The translations under genes were made by a program, and so were the position numbers. A DNA stretch of 63,516 nt, the filler included, from Dimargaris cristalligena (Eukaryota), in NCBI GenBank assembly GCA_003614675.1. It is 15 parts of 15 records of this genome, joined end to end, with 100 filler letters (N's around TTAATTAATTAA, not from the genome) between each part and the next. Parts side by side here need not be neighbours in the genome. Positions count along the whole stretch, not along the records: positions 34,283 to 38,406 come from ML003826.1; 14 more parts are not named here. One strand, given 5' to 3'. The notes beneath the pieces are model-generated. The model had not been told where the DNA came from. It ran no database searches and saw nothing but the letters and a program-made list of their open reading frames with translations. Below, piece after piece: positions 21,973 through 53,855 of this stretch (position 1 is its first letter; each line of letters starts with the position of its first letter).

Positions 21973-23439
21973 TTAAGCCTTACGGCTTCGAGTCCCGCAA
22001 ATGTTGCGGCAGGAAGTCGAGGTACCCCTGGATGGGATGATAGCGGGGCGGTTAGGGTCATGGCAGGCCGAAGACGAAGAGGCTTCGGCCGAGGAAGAGG
22101 CCGTAGTGCCCAGGAACGAACCTTCCGGTCCAATAGAGACGTCCTGGTTCGGAGAGTGACTACCACCACCACTTCTAATCTTGGGTGAAGTGGTAGTAGT
22201 ACCGCTGGGCAGGGCCCGAATCAGGAAATATCCACGGGGCCGGCCGGTCGTTTTATCCAAGGGCTGCATGGCATCGTACAGCGTATCGACCGAAACGAAA
22301 TAACTGGGGTATTTGAACCGGGCGGTATCCAGGACGAGCACGGAGTCCGTGGCGGCGTGGTAGGCACCGATGGGGGAGAAGTGCCCGTCACCGGTTTGCT
22401 GCAGGGTCTTGCGGGCGAAGGAGACGACCATGAACTGGTGAGTACCGGAGCACACCTCCCGAATGTCACGGCGGAATTGGGCGCGGGAGACCTGGTCCCC
22501 CCGGCGGGCGGTGATGTCGCAGTGGTTGACGGCCATGCACTCGAATTGGTCAAAGGTGATGCCGGTGCGCTGGACCACCTCGGGGGAGGCACAGGTTTTG
22601 ATGAGTTCGTCGCTGTACCAGCGCCAACTGCCCTTCCAGGTCTGACCGGGGTCGATCTCCAGGGCGTTGAGCACCATGGCCAACGAACTGGGGCCGCAGT
22701 AGGCGGGTTCCGACTGGGTGGTGAAGTTACCGGCCAGGTTAAAATATCCTTCGGCGGTACCCTGGAGTAGGCTCTCCTTAAAAAGGGCTCGGCCCTTGGC
22801 GGAGGTGAAGGCCGTTAATAGGGGCGGCAATTCACGCCTGTAAAAGGTCTTTCTGGGGAGGGCCAAAGGTGGAGAAGTAGGGGCAGTAGTAGTAGTAGTA
22901 GTAGTAGTAGTAGAAGAAGAAGAAGAAGAAGAAGAAGAAGCGGTAGTGGTGGTGGGAGAGGAAAACGCACCGTCCTTCACCGGCTCTGGTGGGGGAGGGG
23001 GCGGGGCAGCAAAGGCCGTAGCCGGGGAAGAAGAAGGGAAGGCTTCCGGCCAGGTATAGGGGGCTGCCTGGGGGGAAGGCGAAACGGCAGTACCGGCCTT
23101 CGTTACCAGTCCCGGGGGTGGCAGAGGGGCAGAGTAAGAATAAGCATTGGAGGTAGTGGCCAGCGTAGGCCTTGGGGTTTGCGGGCTCGTATGGAGAGTA
23201 CAGCAGAGCCATGGGGCGGTCGAGGGACGGCGGGCAGTGGTTGTTGCCGAGGCACTGGACAAAGCACCCGGGGCGGCAAACGGGGAGAGTTCACGGCCTA
23301 CAGTGGGTGGAGCCAGTGGGCAGCAGGAGGTGGAGAACCGGCACGGCTTGGCTGCGGCGGTTGCACAGGACGAAAACTGGGTGACTGCGGCTCTGCAGTT
23401 ACGAGCTACAGAACAGCTGGGTGAACGAACACATGCCAT
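21973..23439 (-). CDS. PCS: Phytochelatin synthase (488 aa) with a long N-terminal extension
   Basis: TQSEPAYCG (catalytic Cys), WKGSWRWY, GDGHFSPIG (His), LDTARFKYP (Asp). First ATG at 23439. Confidence 0.94.
   Translation of the reverse strand: MACVRSPSCSVARNCRAAVTQFSSCATAAAKPCRFSTSCCPLAPPTVGRELSPFAAPGALSSASATTTARRPSTAPWLCCTLHTSPQTPRPTLATTSNAYSYSAPLPPPGLVTKAGTAVSPSPQAAPYTWPEAFPSSSPATAFAAPPPPPPEPVKDGAFSSPTTTTASSSSSSSSSTTTTTTTTTAPTSPPLALPRKTFYRRELPPLLTAFTSAKGRALFKESLLQGTAEGYFNLAGNFTTQSEPAYCGPSSLAMVLNALEIDPGQTWKGSWRWYSDELIKTCASPEVVQRTGITFDQFECMAVNHCDITARRGDQVSRAQFRRDIREVCSGTHQFMVVSFARKTLQQTGDGHFSPIGAYHAATDSVLVLDTARFKYPSYFVSVDTLYDAMQPLDKTTGRPRGYFLIRALPSGTTTTSPKIRSGGGSHSPNQDVSIGPEGSFLGTTASSSAEASSSSACHDPNRPAIIPSRGTSTSCRNICGTRSRKA
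22885..22940. repeat. Compound coding microsatellite (AGT)9(AGA)9
   Basis: Encodes poly-Ser and poly-Thr tracts just upstream of the PCS catalytic domain. Confidence 0.9.
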
Positions 23440-25811
23440 GGTGGTGAAGTTTAGACTCGGAAAAGCCAATCAAGGGATGGTTAATATAAAAGGGATTACT
23501 AATGGTGTGCGTGGTAAGGTAAGAAAAAAATGGCGGGCTGGTAAAAGAAATGACTGTAGAGAAATATATAAAATAAAAGCTAAAGAAAGACCAAACAACA
23601 ATTCGAGGGAAGCCCACACGTCGCTGAATAATATAGGAAAGGTGGTGGTGTGGTGCGGTTTGGCAGGGTACAGTAATAAAGTCTGCTAGATATGGGCTCA
23701 AATAAGGACAAAAAAAAACCCCCACGGAGTACCGGAATGGGAGGTTCGGCGCACAACAGATTATCCCAACAACTACGTAATCAGGTGGGAAAGTCTGGGA
23801 AAATAAATGAAAGGGTCAGCCAGTAGAGTAAGTCAACAGATAAAAGAGGAGGAGGGTGTGCTTTAGCTACAGCCACATTTTGATTGAGAGGGAGAAACTC
23901 GCTTGGGGCAGTTGGGGGCGTATTTATAAAGGAAGCAGGCAATGGGGGCAGTTCCCAACCACCATTGGAGCTGCCATGTAAAAACAGCAACTCCCCACAG
24001 CATAGCAACAAGATGGTGCTGGAAACAGCGCCAAGGACCAGTCGGGTGACAATACGAGAGATATCTGATAGTCGAATCGCCAATAGCAGTCCTGTTCCAC
24101 CCGGCTCAGCCAATGACTGTAACAAGGCAAAGGGGAGAGGGCACACTAGTAATAACCCCCATCAGCCATGCCCATCAGATAAAACCTCGCCGGAGGCTTA
24201 AACAGGAAGGAGGAGTGTATGTGCATGTGTCATGGTCGAATGGCGGGGCTGAGATGCCTTATTTGAGCTACGCGTGTGGGACGACCGGGTCTATAGGGAG
24301 GAAGACGCGGCGAATCACACGGGCCGGAGGACGTTGAACAGAGTGCGAGATGCAAAGATGAACCGGCAAATCACCTGTCAGCTCTCCCATACATGGGTGC
24401 AGCTGTTTTGTAATGTCGACCGGCGGAATATACTATTTTATTCACACTTCTTCCCGCCATTGGTTTAGCTGAGACCAACGACCATCCGACACCGCCTTAT
24501 CAGATAGCCGGTCTTGCCCTAAACCCAATCGGAACACCCGCTGGCTGGTGGATATTTGGCATGGAGGGGGAAGAACATCATCTCCCCATCTACATTCTCG
24601 TTCGCCCCGTCCATTCACTCAGCACCTCCCCTGGCTGCGTATTTTGACACTCCCTCCTATTCAGTGGCGCCTAAATAGGGTTCTGATATGGCGTGAGTTC
24701 ATCAGATAACCTCTTGGCCAACCCTACTCTTTTAGACCAGCCCGGCAGGCAAGAGGTGCATTGGAATGGAATGGAGTCCAATAGCGAGAGGGTGAAGGAA
24801 GTGGAAGAATCCTCCCAGTATGGAATAATAATACTATTAAGGTAATAGTGTGAATCCTACGCTGCTAATTTCCCACCAATATATATCTGCTTTGTAGTAG
24901 ATTCTTCCACTTAACACCAGGCTAATATGGTTCGGCAACGCTGTATGGTTACGTGGGCGAGTAATGCCAGGGTAGGGTGTACTGAGCTATGGCAGGAGAA
25001 CCATGGAACTTCGCCGTGGCGGCTTTTTTTTTAGGCTGCGTTTCAGGAGGATTAAAATAGTATGAGCGCATCTTGTGTCTAGTAGTCCGTATTTAGGTAC
25101 TTGTTCATGTGATGGGGGCCGGTTGTATAAACCCGGCCCGTAGTGTATCCAAATGCAACAAGAACTACACCCCTTTTTATTTTGCACTACCGCGTGGCCT
25201 GTGTGTGCGTGAGTCCCTTTGGGGGGATTCCGCACTTGAACATAGCTCATTGGTGAATTTACACGAAAGTAGCCCAACCCCCGTTTAAATTATACCACCA
25301 GGGACCACGGGGGTACGCTACTGGCCCCATCAACCCGTGGTGGTATATTATGGGCCCACATTTTCTAGAACTGGCTAGTTAGATAATGGTTTATTATGTA
25401 GTACTGCCAACCGCCTCAATCTAAACTATTTCATAGGTAGCAGAGCTGCCGCGACGGGTCGGCCCTCCTCTGTTAATAGCCCGTGGTTGGAAAAGGCGTT
25501 CCTCTAATAATTGGAATGCAATGAATGTGGTTTGGTTTAGAAATAGGCCAGAGGTAGTGGTGGTGAGTTTATCAAATCAGCTCGGTCAAAGACGCAGATA
25601 GATACCACACCCATTTCTTCTTAGGTACTGGTAGTACACATCATCAAGTGAATTCCCCGCGTCAATACATTTACCTCACCCCCCCCCCCCCCCGTTTTTA
25701 TATTTTTTTTTNNNNNNNNNNNNNNNNNNNNNNNNNNNNNNNNNNNNNNNNNNNNTTAATTAATTAANNNNNNNNNNNNNNNNNNNNNNNNNNNNNNNNN
25801 NNNNNNNNNNN

Positions 25812-28800
25812 TTACTGACCAGGTTCGAGATATCGCGTCCGTCTGTACGGCCGTGGCCCGGGGTGATCTCAAACAAAAAATTAAGGTTACAGCGCGAGGT
25901 GAACTCGACGATATGAAGGTCACTATCAACACTATGGTCGATCAGCTTTCCACGTTTGCTTCCGAAGTGACTCGAGTTGCCAGAGAAGTCGGTACGGAGG
26001 GCCAGCTCGGCGGCCAGGCCACAGTCGAAGACGTGGACGGAACCTGGAAAGATCTTACCGACAACGTCAACATGATGGCCTCCAACCTTACTGACCAGGT
26101 CCGTGATATTGCTTCAGTTTGTACGGCCGTGGCTCGCGGCGATTTGAAGCAGAAAATTAAGGTCACTGCCAGGGGCGAACTCGACGAAATGAAGGTTACC
26201 ATTAATACCATGGTAGACCAGCTTCAGACTTTTGCCTCTGAGGTCACTCGTGTAGCCCGCGAGGTGGGCACTGAAGGTATCCTCGGTGGGCAGGCGACGG
26301 TCGATGGCGTCGACGGTACTTGGAAGGACCTCACCGATAACGTGAACATGATGGCCTCTAACCTTACCGACCAAGTTCGAGACATCGCTTCGGTATGTAC
26401 GGCCGTGGCCCGCGGTGACCTCAAGCAGAAGATCAAGGTTACTGCCCGAGGTGAACTCGACGAGATGAAGGTCACTATTAATACCATGGTGGATCAGTTG
26501 CAAACATTCGCGTCCGAAGTAACTCGTGTAGCTCGCGAAGTGGGTACTGAAGGCATTCTCGGCGGTCAGGCGACGGTCGATGGCGTCGATGGAACTTGGA
26601 AGGACCTCACCGATAACGTGAACATGATGGCCGCCAATCTAACCGATCAAGTCCGTGACATCGCTTCGGTATGTACCGCCGTGGCCCGTGGCGATTTGAA
26701 TCAGAAGATTAAAGTTACCGCCCGGGGTGAGCTCGATGACATGAAGGTCACCATCAATACCATGGTCGATCAATTATCCACGTTTGCCTCCGAAGTTACT
26801 CGAGTGGCTCGTGAGGTCGGTACTGAAGGCCGGCTGGGAGGCCAAGCGACGGTCGAGGACGTGGATGGAACATGGAAGGATCTTACCGACAACGTCAACA
26901 TGATGGCGTTGAACCTTACATCGCAGGTTCGTGACATTGCCCGTGTATGTACCGCCGTTGCCCGCGGCGACCTTAACCAGAAGATCAAGGTGACAGCCAG
27001 CGGTGAGCTCGCCGATCTCAAGACGACCATGAATATCATGGTAGACCAGCTGCAAACCTTTGCTTCCGAAGTCACCCGTGTCGCCCGAGAAGTCGGAACC
27101 GAGGGCCAATTAGGTGGTCAAGCTACCGTCGTAGGTGTCGATGGTACGTGGAAAGACCTGACTGATAATGTCAACATGATGGCTCTCAATCTTACGGACC
27201 AGGTGCGAGATATTGCTAGGGTGTGTACGGCGGTGGCCAGTGGTAATCTCACTCAGAAAGTCATGGTCACAGTCAGTGGTGAACTGCTCGAGCTCAAAGA
27301 TACCATCAATACCATGGTGGACCAGTTATCTACCTTCGCCCTTGAAGTAACTCGAGTCGCCCGTGAGGTCGGAACCAAGGGTAAATTAGGAGGCCAAGCT
27401 CACGTCGACGGGGTAGATGGCACCTGGAAAGATCTCACCGATAACGTCAACATCATGGCTTCTAATCTTACTGATCAAGTACGAGATATTGCGCGTGTTT
27501 GTAAGGCGGTGGCTCAGGGCGACTTAAACCAGCAGATCAAGGTCACCGCCCATGGCGAGTTAGAGGAAATGAAGTACACCATTAACACCATGGTGGCCCA
27601 GCTGTCTACATTTGCCTCCGAGGTCACACGTGTTGCCCGCGAAGTTGGAACTGAGGGTCGTCTTGGCGGTCAAGCCACCGTTGTTGGTGTCGATGGCACT
27701 TGGAAAGATCTTACCGATAATGTCAACATGATGGCTCTCAATCTAACGGACCAGGTGCGAGACATTGCCCGAGTGTGCAAGGCTGTCGCCAAGGGTGACC
27801 TTAACCAGCAAATTAAGGTGACCGCCAGCGGGGAACTGCAGGATCTCAAAACGACCATCAATACTATGGTGGACCAGTTACAGACGTTCGCTTCCGAAGT
27901 AACTCGTGTAGCCCGCGAAGTGGGCACTGAAGGCATTCTCGGCGGTCAAGCGACGGTCGACGGCGTCGACGGAACTTGGAAGGATCTCACCGATAACGTC
28001 AACATGATGGCATCCAATTTGACGGACCAGGTTCGAGACATTGCTTCCGTGTGTACGGCAGTAGCTCGTGGTGACTTGAAACAAAAGATCAAGGTTACAG
28101 CACGAGGTGAACTCGACGATATGAAGGTCACCATCAATACCATGGTGGACCAATTATCGACGTTCGCTTCCGAAGTGACTCGAGTTGCTCGTGAAGTTGG
28201 TACCGAAGGCCAACTCGGTGGCCAGGCGACGGTCGAAGACGTGGACGGAACTTGGAAGGATCTGACCGACAATGTCAATATGATGGCTTCGAATCTTACC
28301 GATCAAGTTCGAGATATCGCGTCCGTCTGTACGGCTGTGGCTCGCGGCGACCTCAAGCAGAAAATCAAGGTTACAGCGCGAGGCGAACTCGATGATATGA
28401 AAGTCACTATTAATACCATGGTGGATCAGTTGCAAACGTTCGCCTCTGAGGTCACGCGTGTAGCCCGCGAGGTTGGTACTGAAGGAATCCTCGGTGGGCA
28501 GGCTACAGTCGATGGCGTCGACGGGACTTGGAAGGACCTCACTGATAACGTGAACATGATGGCAGCCAATTTGACGGATCAGGTTCGAGACATCGCTTCC
28601 GTCTGTACAGCTGTGGCCCGCGGTGACCTCAAACAAAAGATCAAGGTCACCGCCCGGGGCGAACTCGACGAAATGAAGGTCACTATCAACACCATGGTCG
28701 ATCAACTTTCCACTTTTGCTTCTGAGGTTACCCGTGTCGCCCGCGAGGTCGGTACGGAGGGCCAGCTCGGCGGCCAAGCCACCGTCATTGGTGTTGATGG

Positions 28801-29957
28801 TACGTGGAAGGATCTTACCGACAATGTCAATATGATGGCTTCGAATCTTACTGATCAGGTTCGCGATATCGCCTCCGTCTGTACCGCTGTGGCTCGCGGT
28901 GACCTCAAGCAGAAAATTAAGGTCACGGCCCGCGGTGAACTCGACGATCTTAAGACTACGATGAATACTATGGTGGACCAGCTGTCAACGTTCGCATCGG
29001 AGGTGACTCGAGTGGCTCGGGAGGTCGGTACGGAGGGTCGTCTAGGCGGCCAGGCCACCGTGGCCGACGTAGACGGTATCTGGAAAGACCTGACCGAGAG
29101 CGTCAATATGATGGCTCTAAATCTCACTTCCCAGGTACGAGATATCGCCCGAGTATGTACCGCCGTTGCCCGAGGTGACCTGAACCAGAAAATCAAGGTC
29201 ACCGCCAGCGGGGAGCTAGCCGACCTAAAAACCACGATGAATACCATGGTGGATCAGCTACAAACGTTTGCGTCCGAGGTAACCCGAGTCGCCCGCGAGG
29301 TCGGTACGGAGGGCCAATTGGGAGGGCAAGCGACGGTTGCAGATGTGGACGGGACATGGAAGGAGCTCACCGATAATGTCAACGGCATGGCCCAGAATCT
29401 TACCAATCAGGTGCGCGATATTACGTTTGTCTGTAAGGCCGTGGCCCGCGGTAACCTTGAAAGCTTTGTGACCGTTGACGTGCAGGGAGAAATGCTTGAT
29501 CTCAAAGACACTATCAACGGGATGGTGTCCCAGCTTCGCAACTTTGCGCTAGAGGTCACCAAAGTCGCCCTCGAGGTCGGCATGCAAGGTAAACTCGGGG
29601 GCCAGGCGAATGTCATTGGTGTTGACGGGGTGTGGAAAGAACTCACCGACAATGTGAACACCATGGCGTCCAATCTTACCACCCAAGTGCGATCCATCGC
29701 CGCTGTCACGAAAGCTGTCGCTAAGGGTGACATGACCCAAAAGATTGTCGTCGATGTCAAGGGCGAACTCAATGAGCTCAAAATGACGGTCAATTCCATG
29801 GTGGATAAACTACGAACGTTTGCCACGGAAGTAACCAGGGTCGCGCGCGAGGTCGGTACCGAAGGTAGACTGGGTGGGCAGGCCACGGTCGAAGACGTCG
29901 ACGGTATCTGGCGCGAGCTAACCAACAACGTGAATATCATGGCCTCCAATCTTACCG
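25812..29957 (+). CDS. NIK1: Poly-HAMP region of a group III hybrid histidine kinase (NIK1/Os-1-like), partial at both ends
   Basis: The entire contig is one open frame of 15 tandem 92-aa units ([37 protein letters not shown]). Kinase and receiver domains are outside the contig. Confidence 0.88.
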
Positions 29958-34282: not shown

Positions 34283-35717
34283 CATCGAGATCTGATTCGA
34301 ATTTTTCATTATATAGTACGAATCCAAGTGATTTAGTAATATTTTCCTTTTTTTTTTGTCTTTTAAGATATTTGAACACCTTCAAGATGTTTACGTATTG
34401 ATCTTTTGTTTGTTGCCTATCTCGTTTGGGACCATCTTTCATCTCAAGGGAATGCGTTCTTTGGCTGAGATAAGTACACATTTGTTCGAATATTCTGACA
34501 AGAAGGGAGTCCAGGCAATTTCCAACTTTTTGTTTGCTGACCTCTGACCATTTCCTGTTTTCGAATCCAATGAATCGTCCATTCTTTGTCCAAAACAGGA
34601 CGCCCTGATGAATTTTACCAAATAGATTAGCATAATCATGATCTGCTTTGGGGCAATCGATGATTTTTTTCAAAGTGCGCATTTCTTTCATTACCGTCAT
34701 CTCAAAATGGCATTTATCGGAAGAGTTTTTAACCATAAACATCTCTGGGACTATCTGAGCACAGTACCAATCGTTTAAATCATGTTTGTGTTCGAGGCAG
34801 ATTACAATTCCAATCTCGACAAGCATCGAAATAAAATCGATGTTCTGTTTGGTTGATCATTTTCAATTTTTCAACGCCGGATCGCTCAACCAATGGTTTC
34901 TCCACTTGATTCCGATTGGTGACAAGATTTGATAAACTCATCCAAAGGAGGTTGATATCAAGATAGTTGATGTAATTATTTGTTTGGTTCATCTCTTTTT
35001 CATTGAATTTTATTGCCATTGCGGATTCATCACCGTTTGTTTCAACATGGCATGACTGTATCCTTTTGTTCGATTCACCATAATGTGTTTTCTTGACTAT
35101 TGGCACCGCAGGAGAGGGTTTCTGGGCTACAACCAGCTCCTTTCGTCTCCATACATGCATTGAGCAAGAAATGCGCGTTTTTCAGATTGGTGAGTGATTG
35201 CCCGGAGGGGTCTTTTGTCAAAATTGAACTTATGCGCATTGATGCATCCCAAGCATCGATTTTAAGCCAAAAGGAGCGGTGTCAAGTTCTGCAGGGTTTT
35301 CATCTGAAATGGTGTTCAAGATGTGTCTTTTAATGTCTGCCACTTTTGCTCTCTAAACTTTGGTGTAAGCTTGCAAACTTATTATGTGTTAAGCATTTTA
35401 TCCCCCTGTCTTCAATCTTGTATCCCGCACGTTCAGCATATGCGGTTCCCGCAGCAGGAAGGAGCTTTTCTATAATTTGTTGGAATTTTAAAATCTTCTC
35501 TTGAGTCATTCCCTCCGTGGCTTCTTTTTCACATTTGATGTCCCAATCAAAAAAAGGCCTGACTATTGGATTTTCTTCCAAAAATTCATTGTACATGAAC
35601 CCCACTCGTTTCTCAGAGAATTGTTCGAATTCTTGTCAGGATGACTCGATATTTGTTGTGTAGCCCATGCAACTGTTTGATAAATGTCATTCTCTGTTCT
35701 TTGTGATCATTCTTCAT
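34283..35717 (-). pseudogene. Frameshifted AEP primase fused to a D5-like helicase N-terminal region (NCLDV/Polinton-like type), truncated at contig end
   Basis: Read across several frameshifts: RPFFDWD (AEP motif I), KFASLH (motif II), ELDTAPF..KFNFDKRPL (motif III region), C..ICLEHKHDLNDWY..KC (Zn-binding-like), DHDYANLF..FENRKW (D5_N-like) and KKENITKSLGFVLYNEKFESDLD. Confidence 0.7.
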
Positions 35718-36882
35718 TTTGGTCTTCTATTGAAGATTTACTTTTACAAATGATATTTTTTCACTGTATCAGACCCACTTGCCTATTTATAACCAAAATC
35801 ATTCGCATCATTCTTTTAAAGATTCATACATTCTAAGATTCGAAATCTATTTTTTTTTTTAGATCATGAATCTATCGATAAATCAAGACACAAAGAACTC
35901 TGGCAATGTTGACAATGTAGACAATGTCAACCAAAATGCTGTACTAAATGTTGACAATGTCAACCAAAAAGGAAAAGATTGGATGTCGATCTCCGCAATC
36001 ACGACCCAACAGGTACCTACATAAACAAAAACAAAAACAAAAAATATTGATTTCGAGCTTTTCGTTTCTAGAATGTATAAGAAAAATTCCTTGACACCTA
36101 TTGCTGAAATTACACAAAGAAATTAAGTCAAGTCATTTAAACGGCTGGAATCTATTGGTGCATTGCAGTAAGTTTTCAAACCGTTGAAATGCATCGAAAT
36201 CGTTTCTGAAAACAACGGTGAAAAATCTGTTCACAATTATGCCATGGCTATTATCAAACGTCTGTGCGTGCTTGAAGTTGAAGAAATGAGTCAGATTTGG
36301 CCTGTGAGCAATGATCTTTCTTTTCCAAAAGGCAATCCAATTTTTGGGTCACTGTAGGCGCTTCTTGTTATCTTGATCTCTGGATGCAATTAGAACCCCA
36401 ATGTGTGGGCTTCAACAGGTTTGCTATTCTTTCTCTCTGTCAATAATGTTCTCACTGATCGTCATGTTGAATGAAGTTGTTTCTCTTTCATTACATTTGG
36501 TAAATTCTTTCGAATTCGTTTCATGCATTGGAATCGTTCTATCCATACCTTTTATTCTTTAAAAAATATCTTTTCATTTTCCTTCTTATTTTCAATCTTT
36601 CGAAAAATTCTATCCATTCTTTTCATTCTTTTGAAAAATTCATTTCATTTTCTCATTTTTTTTCGTTCTTTCGAAACATCTTTTTGTTTTCACCATTCTT
36701 TTCAACCTTTCGAAAAATCCCTTCCATCGTTGCGATCTGCATCAATCGAAACGATTATTCTAGCCCCTTCTTTCGACAATTTGTTTTTATTCTTTTCACA
36801 AATTGGTTGACAATTTATTCCACTGTTTACACCAAAACTCTCCTTACATGGTCATGTTGTTTTGCATGGTTCCTTCACCTTT

Positions 36883-37057
36883 CCGTGGTACTGGGACCTG
36901 TCACTTCCCTTGGGTCCGTTCCTTTTCCGTGGTAATGTGACCTGTCGCGTCCCTTGGTTCTGTTTCCTTACCGTCATAATTTGACCTGTCGCTTCCCTTG
37001 GTTCCGTTTAATTACCGTGGTAATGGGACCTGTTGCTTCCCATGGTTCCCTTTCTGT
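36883..37057. repeat. 44-bp tandem repeat, 4 units
   Basis: Units start at 36883, 36927, 36971 and 37015. Consensus CCGTGGTAATGGGACCTGTCGCTTCCCTTGGTTCCGTTTCCTTA. Confidence 0.9.
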
Positions 37058-37294
37058 GTGTTTTTCAGATGCTGTCCTTTTCGTTTCCGTGGTAACATAA
37101 TATTCTTTTTAATCAATTGATTCCATATATTTGGAGTCAATCCGTTACCATGTTCAGAAGATTTCATCTTTTTGTTCCGAAAATATTTTGCTATTCAGCA
37201 GTACATGCTGATTTATTTTCACATCTTGCCTTTCTGCAGGTGGGACAACCACGAGTTGGTTGATATAAAAATTTGTCAAATTATTTCAACATTC

Positions 37295-37565
37295 ATTTCA
37301 ACATCTTCAACATCCTCAACATCTTTTGAAGAACTTTATCAATAAACTATTAATCTTTCTCCACTCTTTCTTGCGAATCACCATTCAACATCTTCAACAT
37401 TCAACATCTTTTGAAAAACTTTATCGATAAACAAATTATCTTTCTCCACTCTTTCTTGCAAATCAACCTCTTCAACATTGAACATCTTTTGGAAAACTTT
37501 GTTGATAAGCTATTTATCTATAACCATAAACTAGTTAACTTTTTCCACTCTTTCTTGCGAATCTG
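37295..37565. repeat. Three degenerate ~85-95-bp tandem units
   Basis: AACATCTTTTG.A.AACTTT.T..ATAA.C...TCCACTCTTTCTTGC.AATC recurs three times. Confidence 0.75.
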
Positions 37566-37785
37566 CTCAAATTGTCTGGATCAGAGTATGATAGGCAACT
37601 TTTTGTTACTGAACGCCATAGTAATTGATTCGAACCCCTTTTTTTTCCACCTCATTGTTTTGACAATTTCTTTTCATTCTTTCCACAAATTGTTTGACAA
37701 TTTCTCCCATTTTTTTTCACACCAACACTCTCGTTACGTGGGATTGCAAATGGTCATGTTCTTTTCCATGTTTCCGTTTTCTTTA

Positions 37786-37918
37786 TCGTGGTTAATGGGA
37801 GCTGTCGCTTCCCATGGTTCCGCTTCCTTGCCCTGGTAATGTGACCGGTCGCGTCCCGTGGTTTCATTCCCTTACTATGGTACTGTGACCTGTGGCTTCC
37901 CATGGTTCCATTTCCGTG
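37786..37918. repeat. 44-bp tandem repeat, 3 units, inside the second copy of a ~450-bp direct duplication
   Basis: Units at ~37786, 37831 and 37875. The flanks (TTTTCAGATGCTGTCCTTT..AATCAATTGAT.CCATATATTTGGAGTCAAT..CAGGTGGGACAACCAC) duplicate 37060-37251. Confidence 0.85.
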
Positions 37919-38231
37919 TGTTTTCAGATGCTGTCCTTTCGTTGCAAAGTACTATTCTCATTAATCAATTGATGCCATATATTTGGAGTCAATATGTTAC
38001 CATGTTCATTTTTTCGTTCCAAAAACATTTGGCTATTCCGTAGTACACGCTATTTTACTTTCACATCTAGCTGCTTTGCGGCGTGCCCATAGGGCACCCC
38101 ACCTCAGGTGGGACAACCACAGGTCGGGTGATTTACAAGTATCCTTTTGCTCACAGTCGACATTAAATTGCAAAGCATCTTCTTTTTTCAAAAATATCAA
38201 AAACAACAAAAATATTATATGCGATTCAAAC

Positions 38232-38406
38232 ATGGAAGAAATCTATTTTGACGTTTTCGCATACAGAATGATGAAGAACAGTTCCTTGGTTCCTTTGCCA
38301 AAAACAACTCGTAATTTTTACAGCAAACTTCTCGAAAGACTTGCCACCGTTGGCGATCTTGAACATGTCTTCGACCCTGAAAAATGCATGAAGATTTGTT
38401 CATTTG
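38232..38406 (+). CDS. Partial hypothetical protein (N-terminus only)
   Basis: AAACATGG start context. Open to the contig edge: MEEIYFDVFAYRMMKNSSLVPLPKTTRNFYSKLLERL... Confidence 0.4.
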
Positions 38407-51076: not shown

Positions 51077-53855
51077 ACATCTCCTTCAAGAACCTTGTCC
51101 GCCATGGCCTCCTCAAGGGTGGCTTCGGACTGTTGAATACCTACCGAATCGAGCAGTTTATCAGCCCACCGGCGTTGCTGGATCCGTTCGCGTTCCCATT
51201 GGTAGCAGTTGCCACGCAGCCTAATTAAAAACCGATGGAGAGTTCCTTGGAACTTCTGGCGAAAGTCCGAGGAGGTATTGTTGAGATTGGCCAGGATCAA
51301 GGCCCGGAGCCAGGTCAGTTCCAGGGAGGTAATGGGCTGAGTGGCCTTGCGGGCCTCGCAAAGGAGACCTACAAGGTCGAGGCGGACATTGTTGTCCTGG
51401 TGGTGCAAAGCGGCCTGGAACTGCTCTTCCGTCAGGCCCACGGGTGCCGCGGCCATGGCGGACAAGGTTCTTGAAGGAGATGTGGGGGATTTGACATCTG
51501 GTTCCGGCCAACCCAGGGCTTTTGTGGTTTTGTGGATGGCCAGGAGGGCATGGAGATTGAATTCGGACGAAGCCGAGTTCATCGTACAGGTCTGGAGTGG
51601 CCCAACGATCAGGGGCAATGCATCGGGGAATAGTCGCAGCAACGTGGGCAGTACCAGTGCCGCAACACTTTTCCGGGTAGCCGGGTTCGAAGAGCGAAGT
51701 GACTCCCGGTAGGCTTCGGCCCACATGTTCAACCATTGGGCACGGGAGAGACTGGGCAGGTCGCCATTGCATCCGTAATCGGAACTGCCCCGCTTCAGCA
51801 TTGTGAGGTGAAGCTCCACAACACGAGGTCGCAGTAGATTGTCACTGATCATTTCGAGGGAGTAGACTAATATACGGGGCTGCCGGGAAAAAATGTCGAC
51901 ATTGCCGATGCGACAAGCAATGCTCGAGAGAAGTGGGTATTTGGCCCTTTGATCCCAACGCATCCCCAAAATACGGTCGAGTAGTTGGTGGGTAAAGGGT
52001 GCCGACATGGCGCCTTGGAAATCGGGCAATTCGCAGATGTCCATGATGGTATCGAAAATGGTGTTCACCTAGGTCGATTTTGAAAATATAAAGTAAAAGA
52101 TACATTGGCACAAATATATAGAGGTGATTAGTAAGTACCACTTAGCTTAATTAAATAGGCCTTCTAAACTTAATAAGATCCAATAGCATCTATGGAAAAC
52201 CGTCCTTAAATTTCAATCTGGAAGGGCAATACACAGTATAATTAAACCAATTATTGAAATATACAAAAAGAAGGCAGTACTGGTAGGATTAAACATACCT
52301 TATGGCGGATGGCATCGACGGGGTCGTCCCAGTGGTTCCAGACATGTTTAAGCATGGACTCCAGCACAGCAGAGTCGGTAGCGAAACTGCTGAATACCTC
52401 TTTTTCGGCTGGGGATATTTGGGAGGCACTGCCGGTTATGGACGAATCCGCCGCCAGCATAACCAAACCATCTTTAATGCGCTGAATCCAGAGTGCGAGG
52501 GACTCAAAGACAAGGACCCGGTCTTGGAAATCAGAGCTAATTCCGTGGGCGAACTGCAAATAGGTAAAGAGGACTTGGAGCAAGGGCCGGTGGGCTGGTT
52601 TGGCAGAATGGGGGCCATCGATCAACAACGACATGGATACCAGGGTCTTGGTTTCCGTATATACCAGGCAGCCTCGGATCGTGCAAAGGTTTGCCATACG
52701 CTTTTGCAGACAGGCTATACTGGGATCAGTGGTATTATTGACGCGGCCTAGCTCCTCGAACGATAATTCAATCGTGCTGTCAGGCGTAACCTGAGGCCCT
52801 TGGATATGTTGGGCGAGGCCCATGACCAGGCCAGCGGCCTGGGATACATCCAATGTATAGATGTGGCAGTTACCCACCAGAGCCTGGCATAAGCAATGTA
52901 CCGCCCTTGCTACGGTGCCCTCGGGATGCTCGGGATGACTTGGCTGTAACATTAACAGATTTGCCAAGGATTTCCGAATGGTGTCGGACACGGGGGTTGC
53001 GCCGAGTCGACGGTAAGAACCAGGATGGGTGGTTAAAATCACCTGGAGGGTACGGGTTAACGATCGCAAATAGTCCAATTGTCCGGTTAATACCGGAATC
53101 GGGGAAAAGGTTTCGGTATCCCCGGTGGAATGCGACATAACATTTAAATTCAAGGAAGCGGCCACCCGGATGCAGTCCCCGATCACACTGGTCAATGTTT
53201 CAACAAAGACGGCTTCCACGGCGTGCTGGCCAGCGGCGAATTCGCACAGAGTATGGATCACTTCGGGCCGACGGGTCGCCGGCAAGGACGGAAATTCCCT
53301 TTCCGAGAGTGTCAGAGACTCCAGATTTCCCTGATCATTGCAGTCATTAAGTGACGCCAAAAGATCTTGCTGGATCCGGGCCGAGACGGTTTCCAACAGT
53401 GGGGTGGTAGCCAGGTTCAACTCTAGAGCCCCTAATAGTCGCTCACAAGCCGTCAACACAGCCACACAGTGGCGCCGGGGAACGACGTCTCCAGCCAAAA
53501 AAAGGCAGCGTACCAGGACCGGAACCAATACCTCCGTCAATAAATGCACAAGGGTAGCGTCGATGGCGGAGTCAGATCCCAGGAAGGGTAACTTGGTCGC
53601 TTGGTTGAGGAGCGCCTCGAGTTGTTTGAGAACGCGACTTTGGCGGTCCCAGCCGACGTCGGCGGCAGTGATGAGCTGGGTCAACAGACTCACTAACGAA
53701 GCAACGAGTCGCCCAGTGGGATGCCCGGCAATCGGCTTGAGACTAGGAGATATGCTCTCCAAAGGCGCGGCCCATTGGGCCCGAAGGGAATCAGTAGCGA
53801 TGGCAGCCTTCATTCCCTTATCGCGCTTTTGTTTGGACTTGTTTTTACTGCTCAT
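51077..53855 (-). CDS. THADA: THADA/Trm732-like armadillo-repeat protein, 5' part (exons 53855-52299 and 52068 to contig end)
   Basis: VWNHWDDPVDAIRHK|VNTIF joined by a GTATGT..CCTAG intron with a TACTAAT branch site. Also W..RAKY..L, ALHH.D..VRLD..GLLCE..K and NLN..SSDFRQ. The terminal ~33 nt look chimeric. Confidence 0.82.

Follow-up and report, generated by a model that had tools for sequence, protein, structure and literature searches.

The left end of one contig in the Dimargaris cristalligena assembly GCA_003614675.1 probably carries the 5′ half of a D5/C962R-type gene in a defunct copy, derived from a viral element resident in the sequenced eukaryote. Proteins of the type represented by poxvirus D5 and by C962R of African swine fever virus (ASFV) serve large viruses or virus-like elements by priming and unwinding their DNA. 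The contig (ML003826.1, positions 34283-38406; 4,124 bp) is one of 15, each 4.08-4.24 kb long, that are sorted by length and joined by N44-TTAATTAATTAA-N44 linkers into the 63.5-kb stretch of DNA analyzed here (the window). We propose that the ancestral protein would have comprised an archaeo-eukaryotic primase (AEP) domain, a CCHC zinc module, a D5_N region, and a superfamily 3 (SF3) helicase, that the DNA would form part of a viral element that is integrated or persistent in the eukaryote, and that the broken copy may be either a decayed duplicate or an older insertion.

On the minus strand, positions 35635 to 34284 are colinear with residues 20-442 of proteins of 800-880 residues that have an AEP / CCHC zinc / D5_N / SF3 helicase organization. 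The parts of the fragment and the sites at which its frame is broken are listed below in the direction of translation. Values labeled HMM were obtained with a hidden Markov model of the N-termini of the relatives' clade, which matches all three N-terminal pieces (Z=1), and P0001 is the best-matching relative.

35414..35635, minus strand: AEP domain part 1 with motif I (..RPFFDWD..); P0001 residues 20-92, tblastn E 1.1e-14, HMM 8.8e-24
35389..35413, minus strand: frameshift site 1, placed at 35389 by one query and at 35413 by another; a surplus of 1 nt or a deficit of 2, with a C5 run at 35403-35407
35262..35388, minus strand: AEP domain part 2, with the motif II strand HIISLQAY, a stop at 35353-35355, and ELDTAPF at the motif III position; HMM 3.6e-10
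35259, minus strand: frameshift site 2, with 1 nt too many; a diverged copy of the gene (described below) lacks 1 nt at 35266
35136..35258, minus strand: AEP domain part 3 (..CLGCINAHK..EKRAFLAQCMYGDE..); P0014 68% identity over 40 aa, E 2e-12; P0001 E 1.8e-10; HMM 2.3e-18
35134..35135, minus strand: frameshift site 3, with 2 nt too many or 1 too few
34807..34980, minus strand: linker and first half of the zinc module (..FYFDACRDWNC..); P0003 42% identity over 57 aa (tblastn), and frameshift-aware alignment
34791..34803, minus strand: frameshift site 4, within the CCHC zinc module, with 1 nt too many or 2 too few
34284..34802, minus strand: the rest of the zinc module (C..H..C), followed by the first two thirds of the D5_N-like region, in an open frame that ends with LYNEKFESDLD at the contig end; phmmer E 2.3e-31, 37% identity to P0027 of metagenome contig L010

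This path is supported by searches run in both directions. The 191-residue open piece at 34283-34856 (minus strand) was compared exhaustively, using phmmer, with 1.84 billion protein representatives. Twenty proteins matched at E<=1e-3, always in the middle of chains of ~800-930 residues, and the best of them, P0001, did so over residues 270-442 of 822 with the E value given above. A Pfam scan of 18 of these 20 homologues, two fragments of 153 and 72 aa being left out, found D5_N (PF08706) over the aligned region in 17, together with AEP_C962R in two and Prim-Pol in three. When the homologues were searched back against the contig with tblastn, 19 of the 20 matched colinearly, passing through three minus-strand frames. 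A frameshift-aware alignment carries P0001 residues 20-442 from 35635 to 34284 through four frame changes, near 35389-35413, 35259, 35134-35135, and 34791-34803, and across the in-frame stop at 35353-35355; the short linker that follows the first change contains more stops. A further stop is located directly upstream of the start of homology at 35635, no in-frame ATG is present, and an ATG in another frame at 35690 has no statistical support as the original start. With its reading frame shifted four times internally and interrupted by at least one stop, and with no in-frame ATG to begin from, the window copy is predicted to be a nonfunctional pseudogene.

As judged from these alignments, the presence of the fragment at this place is confirmed far beyond chance. 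The first-pass annotation of the window had proposed AEP motifs, a Cys/His cluster, and a D5_N-like segment in the expected order across at least four frameshifts, and the colinear path with its four shifts bears this out. The extent it gave (34283 to 35717) is correct as to location, but homology begins at 35635 rather than at 35717. Likewise, the fragment does end before the SF3 helicase core as had been reported, but the cause is the contig end, which falls at the residue matching D442 of P0001, and not a visible truncation of the gene. The D5_N-like piece itself has no Pfam D5_N match; it spans only the first part of this domain before the contig ends. Other searches that began from the window sequence were less productive. 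A word-indexed protein search with the 191-residue piece found no longer proteins, and scans of IMG/VR with two single window pieces found none. The ESM Atlas provided leads that agree with the family assignment, to clusters of PF23162 (AEP_C962R; 0.95, 192/256 features) and to D5_N (0.93; 154/256 features).

Most of the motifs noticed initially hold up under comparison with the relatives: RPFFDWD, LDTAPF, the Cys/His cluster, and LYNEKFESDLD all match conserved columns. AEP motif I, FFDWD at ~35540-35554 (minus strand), is aligned to YYDWD of P0001 and to F.D.DF of P0027, P0006, and P0008, and it corresponds to strand 47-54 in a structural model of P0001. The motif III aspartate lies in ELDTAPF, which is aligned to ELDRKVY of P0001 and VDKSVY of P0027. 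The C, C, H, and C residues of the zinc module are aligned to C266, C271, H275, and C299 of P0001. Three of these columns are invariant in an 11-row alignment, in which C271 is unlisted, and one is invariant and three are nearly so in a 20-row alignment. This module is conserved in the relatives, and in the window copy it straddles the shift near 34800. In contrast, the “ASLH” motif of the first-pass annotation was read in the wrong frame. The homologous frame in the motif II region is HIISLQAY, compared to NIVSLRAF of P0001, and by an alignment made only by eye its H pairs with H of P0003 and with KLH-LIF of P0027. The residues at the motif II position in P0001, P0004, P0014, P0021, P0005, and P0007 are N, N, Y, T, C, and V, respectively (alignment columns 293-300). 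Primase domains of intact relatives that lack the motif II histidine while keeping motifs I and III may be derived or inactive, to judge from these columns.

The assignment to a degraded gene of the AEP / D5_N / SF3 primase-helicase type is supported by comparisons of profile and of fold. A profile of 11 relatives matched poxvirus D5/E5 (1.4e-13) and ASFV C962R (3.7e-12) in the PDB over the helicase part. An AlphaFold2 model was made from a 20-row alignment for P0001, which is an intact relative and not the window copy (mean predicted local distance difference test score 82.8; residues 20-185 mostly 80-95). Residues 1-187 of this model match the AEP domain crystal of monkeypox virus E5 (8xig; Z 15.6, root-mean-square deviation 3.4, 178 residues aligned) and the AEP domain of vaccinia virus D5 (8xif; Z 15.5), and the whole model matches ASFV C962R (Z 25.8; Foldseek E 1e-27) and poxvirus D5/E5 (Z ~21). 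Thus, the N-terminal domain of the closest intact relative is predicted to fold as an AEP primase. By sequence, a bridge made of P0027, P0006, P0008, and P0003 joins the N-terminus of the clade with a probability of 82% (E 1e-5, 137 columns, motifs I and III aligned), and this bridge joins the canonical AEP_C962R set with 96.9%. Because direct comparison of the profiles failed, the link between the N-terminus of the clade and AEP is drawn from these bridging sequences and from the fold. Among close relatives, PF23162 is matched only by P0027, P0006, and P0008, whereas neither the window pieces (E<=10) nor P0001, P0004, P0005, P0014, P0021, and P0007 match it.

A different origin that must be weighed against these data is a cellular PrimPol, or a P4-type primase from a contaminating bacterium or phage. 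Human PrimPol is also a structural match to the AEP domain of the P0001 model (Z 15.2), as is the SaPI5 primase-helicase to the C-terminal part of that model (Z 20.9), and the weakest sequence matches carry PF09250. However, such an origin is very improbable. The 15 best matches have the zinc module and D5_N layout, AEP_C962R is the sole AEP family that Pfam detects in close relatives (P0006, P0008, and P0027), the best whole-chain matches are ASFV C962R and poxvirus D5/E5, and the PHROGs phage library gave no relevant match for window pieces. Moreover, proteins of the Prim-Pol (PF09250) type score just 5.8e-5 to 5.6e-4, and the gene does not group with cellular PrimPol.

We also conclude that the frameshifts are real and are not sequencing errors. 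Six public runs (X1-X6), from three studies and under three organism labels, contain at least half of the sampled words of the contig, and contigs of four of these runs (X1-X4) were compared with the contig in the window. No RNA run appears among those listed. From each of X1, X2, and X3, which represent three studies, independent assembly gave contigs that do not differ from the window anywhere across the shift sites. Because the identical broken sequence was assembled again from each of these runs, the frameshifted decay that had been read from the window stands. That the gene is intact and merely appears to be shifted through assembly or sequencing errors is therefore scarcely credible. One shift does coincide with the C5 run at 35403-35407, but the remaining shifts are away from long homopolymers, and in-frame stops are present as well. 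Introns or a variant genetic code were considered separately and rejected, the breaks being frame changes of 1-2 nt. The presence of an identical pseudogene sequence under three organism labels in three studies may reflect close kin, co-culture partners, or a common contaminant.

All four compared runs also contain a second copy that is diverged by ~10% (for example, 42-53 differing letters per 320-490 nt). Exactly four indels of this copy are listed within the gene, namely +TT after 34801, -1 at 35266, +T after 35403, and +C after 35407, and each is located at a shift site and has the size needed to cancel that shift. The lengths of the records imply a further +1 within 35111-35331, as the shift near 35134 needs, although this is a matter of arithmetic and not of a listed row (the X3 contig has 495 letters over 493 nt with four gaps, and the X4 contig has 372 letters over 372 nt with two gaps). 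Since these indels cancel each shift, the diverged copy keeps one frame through all four sites. Thus, the term “relic” fits the window copy, whereas the element as a whole need not be one. In a public run, the diverged copy has at least one contig that extends past the point at which the window contig ends. Because a second copy free of the frameshifts is present in the same samples, the assembly and raw reads are worth searching for the remainder of the element and for its host junctions, and this copy could be a sign that the same organism carries a more complete element.

One possibility, which we consider unlikely, is that the frame-preserving second copy works as the replication gene of a large DNA virus or virus-like element that resides, latent or active, in the sequenced eukaryote. 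If this is true, a clade found hitherto only on metagenome contigs would gain its first host. If the host is also fungal, this would be a further association of DNA viruses with fungi, in which repeated insertion would have left the broken window copy behind as debris.

Several points weigh against the interpretation we favor, in which the fragment is a dead copy from a viral element resident in the eukaryote. First, no host gene or host-DNA junction is recognizable on the 4.1-kb contig, and no sequence common to this contig and the other 14 in the window was found. Second, the diverged copy was judged by its indels, with 345 substitutions and 19 indels unlisted and its stop codons thus unseen. 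Third, the depths of the two copies are too uneven to tell copy number or residence in one genome. In X1, the exact copy is at ~4,500 and the diverged copy at ~550-700; in X4, the values are ~3 and ~90; and in X2 and X3, both copies are at ~5-8. Fourth, a Pfam scan of six stop-to-stop pieces of the minus strand gave nothing relevant even at E<=10, and direct comparison by hhalign of the clade N-terminus with canonical AEP_C962R N-termini gave a probability of only 0.7%. Accordingly, the earlier description of the region as an endogenized and degraded viral element is upheld with regard to a degraded gene of viral type, but the endogenization it supposes meets a short contig with neither a host gene nor a junction.

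Some of these same observations suit an alternative in which the contig lies outside the chromosomes of the eukaryote, either in a co-sequenced organism or in a large DNA virus, free or episomal, that accompanies the cultures or samples. In addition to the lack of a host gene, of a junction, and of anything in common with the other 14 contigs, the identical sequence is found under three organism labels, and the ratio of the two copies moves from ~7:1 to ~1:30 between samples of one label. The base composition is also suggestive. The contig has a GC content of 0.37 and a ratio of observed to expected CpG (CpG o/e) of 0.84, whereas the other window contigs have GC of 0.40-0.58 and CpG o/e of 0.20-1.15. 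This wide spread across the window (GC of 0.37-0.58 and CpG o/e of 0.20-1.15) indicates that the assembly may mix organisms or compartments. Nevertheless, we regard an origin off the chromosomes as somewhat doubtful. A replicating virus should not keep a core replication gene in a broken state, which argues that the window copy is not a working viral gene, and X2 and X3 hold both copies at about the same low depth.

The remainder of the contig provides another point against an origin outside the chromosomes. It contains the following features.

35636..35862, no strand assigned: upstream region, with the stop that abuts the homology and the unsupported ATG in another frame at 35690
36046..36357, plus strand: small open reading frame (ORF) with two in-frame stops, a paralogue of 38232-38406; no Pfam match
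36500..38140, no strand assigned: two direct repeat units of ~850-900 bp, each with 44-bp tandem arrays and one or the other with 71-, 39-, and 85-bp arrays
38232..38406, plus strand: open copy of the small ORF, running off the contig end; no homologue found

The repeats at 36500-38140 reach a summed depth of up to 99,491 in X1, where the gene is at ~5,000, and across the public runs their summed depth is up to ~20-350 times that of the adjacent gene, with many diverged copies and rearranged joints. They occur in hundreds of diverged contig pieces (467 in X1, 290 of them with <95% identity). Such a pattern is commoner in cellular genomes, even though some giant viruses are rich in repeats. Because it resembles a dispersed family of a cellular genome, it favors chromosomal residence without proving it. 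The first-pass annotation had described the contig as AT-rich, not visibly depleted in CpG, and free of host repeat families. The composition is as it had stated, but the statement on repeats is not established, because the right-hand 2 kb is made up of repeats present at very high copy number in the sequencing runs. Outside the gene fragment, the contig has no Pfam match (no capsid, packaging ATPase, protease, integrase, or pPolB was seen, and the contig is short) and no tblastx match to 89 metagenome loci that encode relatives. The two small ORFs (36046-36357 and 38232-38406) have neither a Pfam match nor a detected homologue.

These 89 loci bear on the question of which viral lineage provided the gene. 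Relatives of P0001 from an indexed search are all metagenome proteins, on contigs of 8-23 kb. The 11-relative profile matched nine loci in IMG/VR, several of them from giant-virus bins, and the others are 80 of 301 stretches in JGI metagenomes that encode relatives. Only L010, L011, and L012 match the piece carried by the window itself (37%, 25%, and 24% identity, respectively); the IMG/VR loci and the remaining JGI loci match the helicase half only, which is absent from the window. L010, a gene-dense 10.9-kb contig with ankyrin-repeat genes and ORFans, encodes the intact 883-aa protein P0027, the nearest relative for which DNA context is available, which passes Pfam thresholds for AEP_C962R (2.1e-11) and D5_N (7.9e-17). 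PDB sequence searches with large ORFs beside the relatives on L010 and L011 produced nothing useful.

A tree of the region kept in the window (50 rows, 264 columns), which is quick, unrooted, and without named reference taxa, places the window copy in a starred six-row set with P0001, P0002, P0003, P0004, and P0027. The six rows belong to a side of 27 rows in which N-terminal types are mixed. The other, 23-row side, across a starred branch, includes 21 of the 24 proteins that have an AEP_C962R N-terminus; most of those scanned also have PriCT_2, D5_N, and DUF5906, and their contigs reach 337 kb. L002, with an RNA polymerase, and L003, with an L1R/F9L membrane protein, are giant-virus contigs that each carry a member of the mixed side, and each also encodes a canonical AEP_C962R + PriCT_2 + D5_N protein that is itself not among the rows of the tree. 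Each of the two contigs carries two primase-helicase paralogues a few kilobases apart (L002:8402-11176/13262-15808 and L003:3373-6249/7034-9838), one with a Prim-Pol (PF09250) N-terminus and the other with AEP_C962R. A further member of the mixed side occurs on L004.

It is conceivable, although we lean away from it, that the gene came not from a member of Nucleocytoviricota but from something smaller that employs this kind of primase-helicase, be it a virophage, a Polinton-like virus, or an accessory mobile element associated with giant viruses. The tree sets the window copy apart from the canonical AEP_C962R side, and the closest relatives are on contigs of just 7-23 kb. The mixed-side members on L002 and L003 are additional to the canonical-domain protein, and L004 pairs its member with two tyrosine integrases. 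In a search of BFVD structures, the primase-helicase of Yellowstone Lake virophage 5 ranks fourth (E 7.7e-33), with phage primases further down. However, the best structural matches in BFVD are giant-virus D5 proteins, from Heterosigma akashiwo virus (1.6e-40) and then Bodo saltans virus. Also, L010 shows gene density and ankyrin-repeat genes with no capsid, integrase, or pPolB seen within its 10.9 kb, the tree is subject to the limits given above, and short contigs may be poorly assembled pieces of large genomes.

Other observations concern additional genes. Two of the D5-type helicases, L009:9038-12343 and P0023, have an intein (Hom_end_hint 1.7e-19 and 4.3e-15, respectively) between D5_N and the helicase core. 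Elsewhere in the window, contigs carry eukaryotic genes, including those for phytochelatin synthase (21973-23469, minus strand; 2.1e-81) and for the TPR repeats of Trm732 (51079-52068, minus strand; 1.9e-27). At 25814-29956 (plus strand), a single open frame of 1,381 aa spans an entire contig and has 12-13 HAMP repeats (PF00672, 1.4e-138). This ORF resembles a segment of a HAMP-repeat sensor protein of great length.

Several known systems resemble the fragment in part. ASFV C962R (“AsfvPrimPol”) and poxvirus D5/E5 (8iqi, 9ivf, 8xig, 8xif, and 8hwa) have the same order of domains as the relatives of the window gene, with 13-19% identity at the level of structure. They differ in that the clade of the window has no Pfam AEP or PriCT_2 match, and in that the window copy is broken, with its helicase half beyond the contig end. 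The primase-helicases of virophages and Polinton-like viruses, as represented by Yellowstone Lake virophage 5, share the overall fold and layout at 15% identity, whereas the capsid, packaging ATPase, protease, and integrase genes of such elements were not seen on the contig or on L010.

To our knowledge, DNA viruses of fungi were long held to be absent. A 1.5-Mb region of Rhizophagus is reportedly a giant-virus-like endogenous element in a fungal genome. Relics of DNA viruses in fungi, and latent giant viruses, have been documented only recently (PMC7017919 and PMC13533422). The first, from 2020, describes giant-virus-like insertions in fungal genomes (“fundsalphaviruses”) with a D5 helicase-primase, frameshifts, and premature stops, and the second, from 2026, describes latent giant viruses of zoosporic fungi (Mycodnaviridae) with a D5-like helicase-primase. 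A broad survey reports double-stranded DNA viral regions in 153 fungal assemblies (bioRxiv 10.1101/2025.04.19.649669). The fragment in the window resembles these fungal elements in that frameshifts and stops interrupt a viral replication gene, and in that the assembly has eukaryotic, possibly fungal, genes. Unlike them, it is found here without linked hallmark genes, a long contig, or a demonstrated host junction. Since frameshifted D5-type relics in fungal genomes have already been published (PMC7017919), the present fragment adds another.

The closest comparison is with the metagenome clade formed by P0001, P0002, P0003, P0004, and P0027. These proteins share 31-38% identity with the window gene over 156-175 residues and have the same CCHC module. 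Their frames are open, and they are 806-883 aa long except for P0002 (527 aa), with ENA/JGI contigs of 8-11 kb for three of the members. Compared to these intact proteins, the fragment represents one more decayed D5-type gene, from a clade so sparsely sampled that 20 relatives were found at E<=1e-3 among 1.84 billion representatives.

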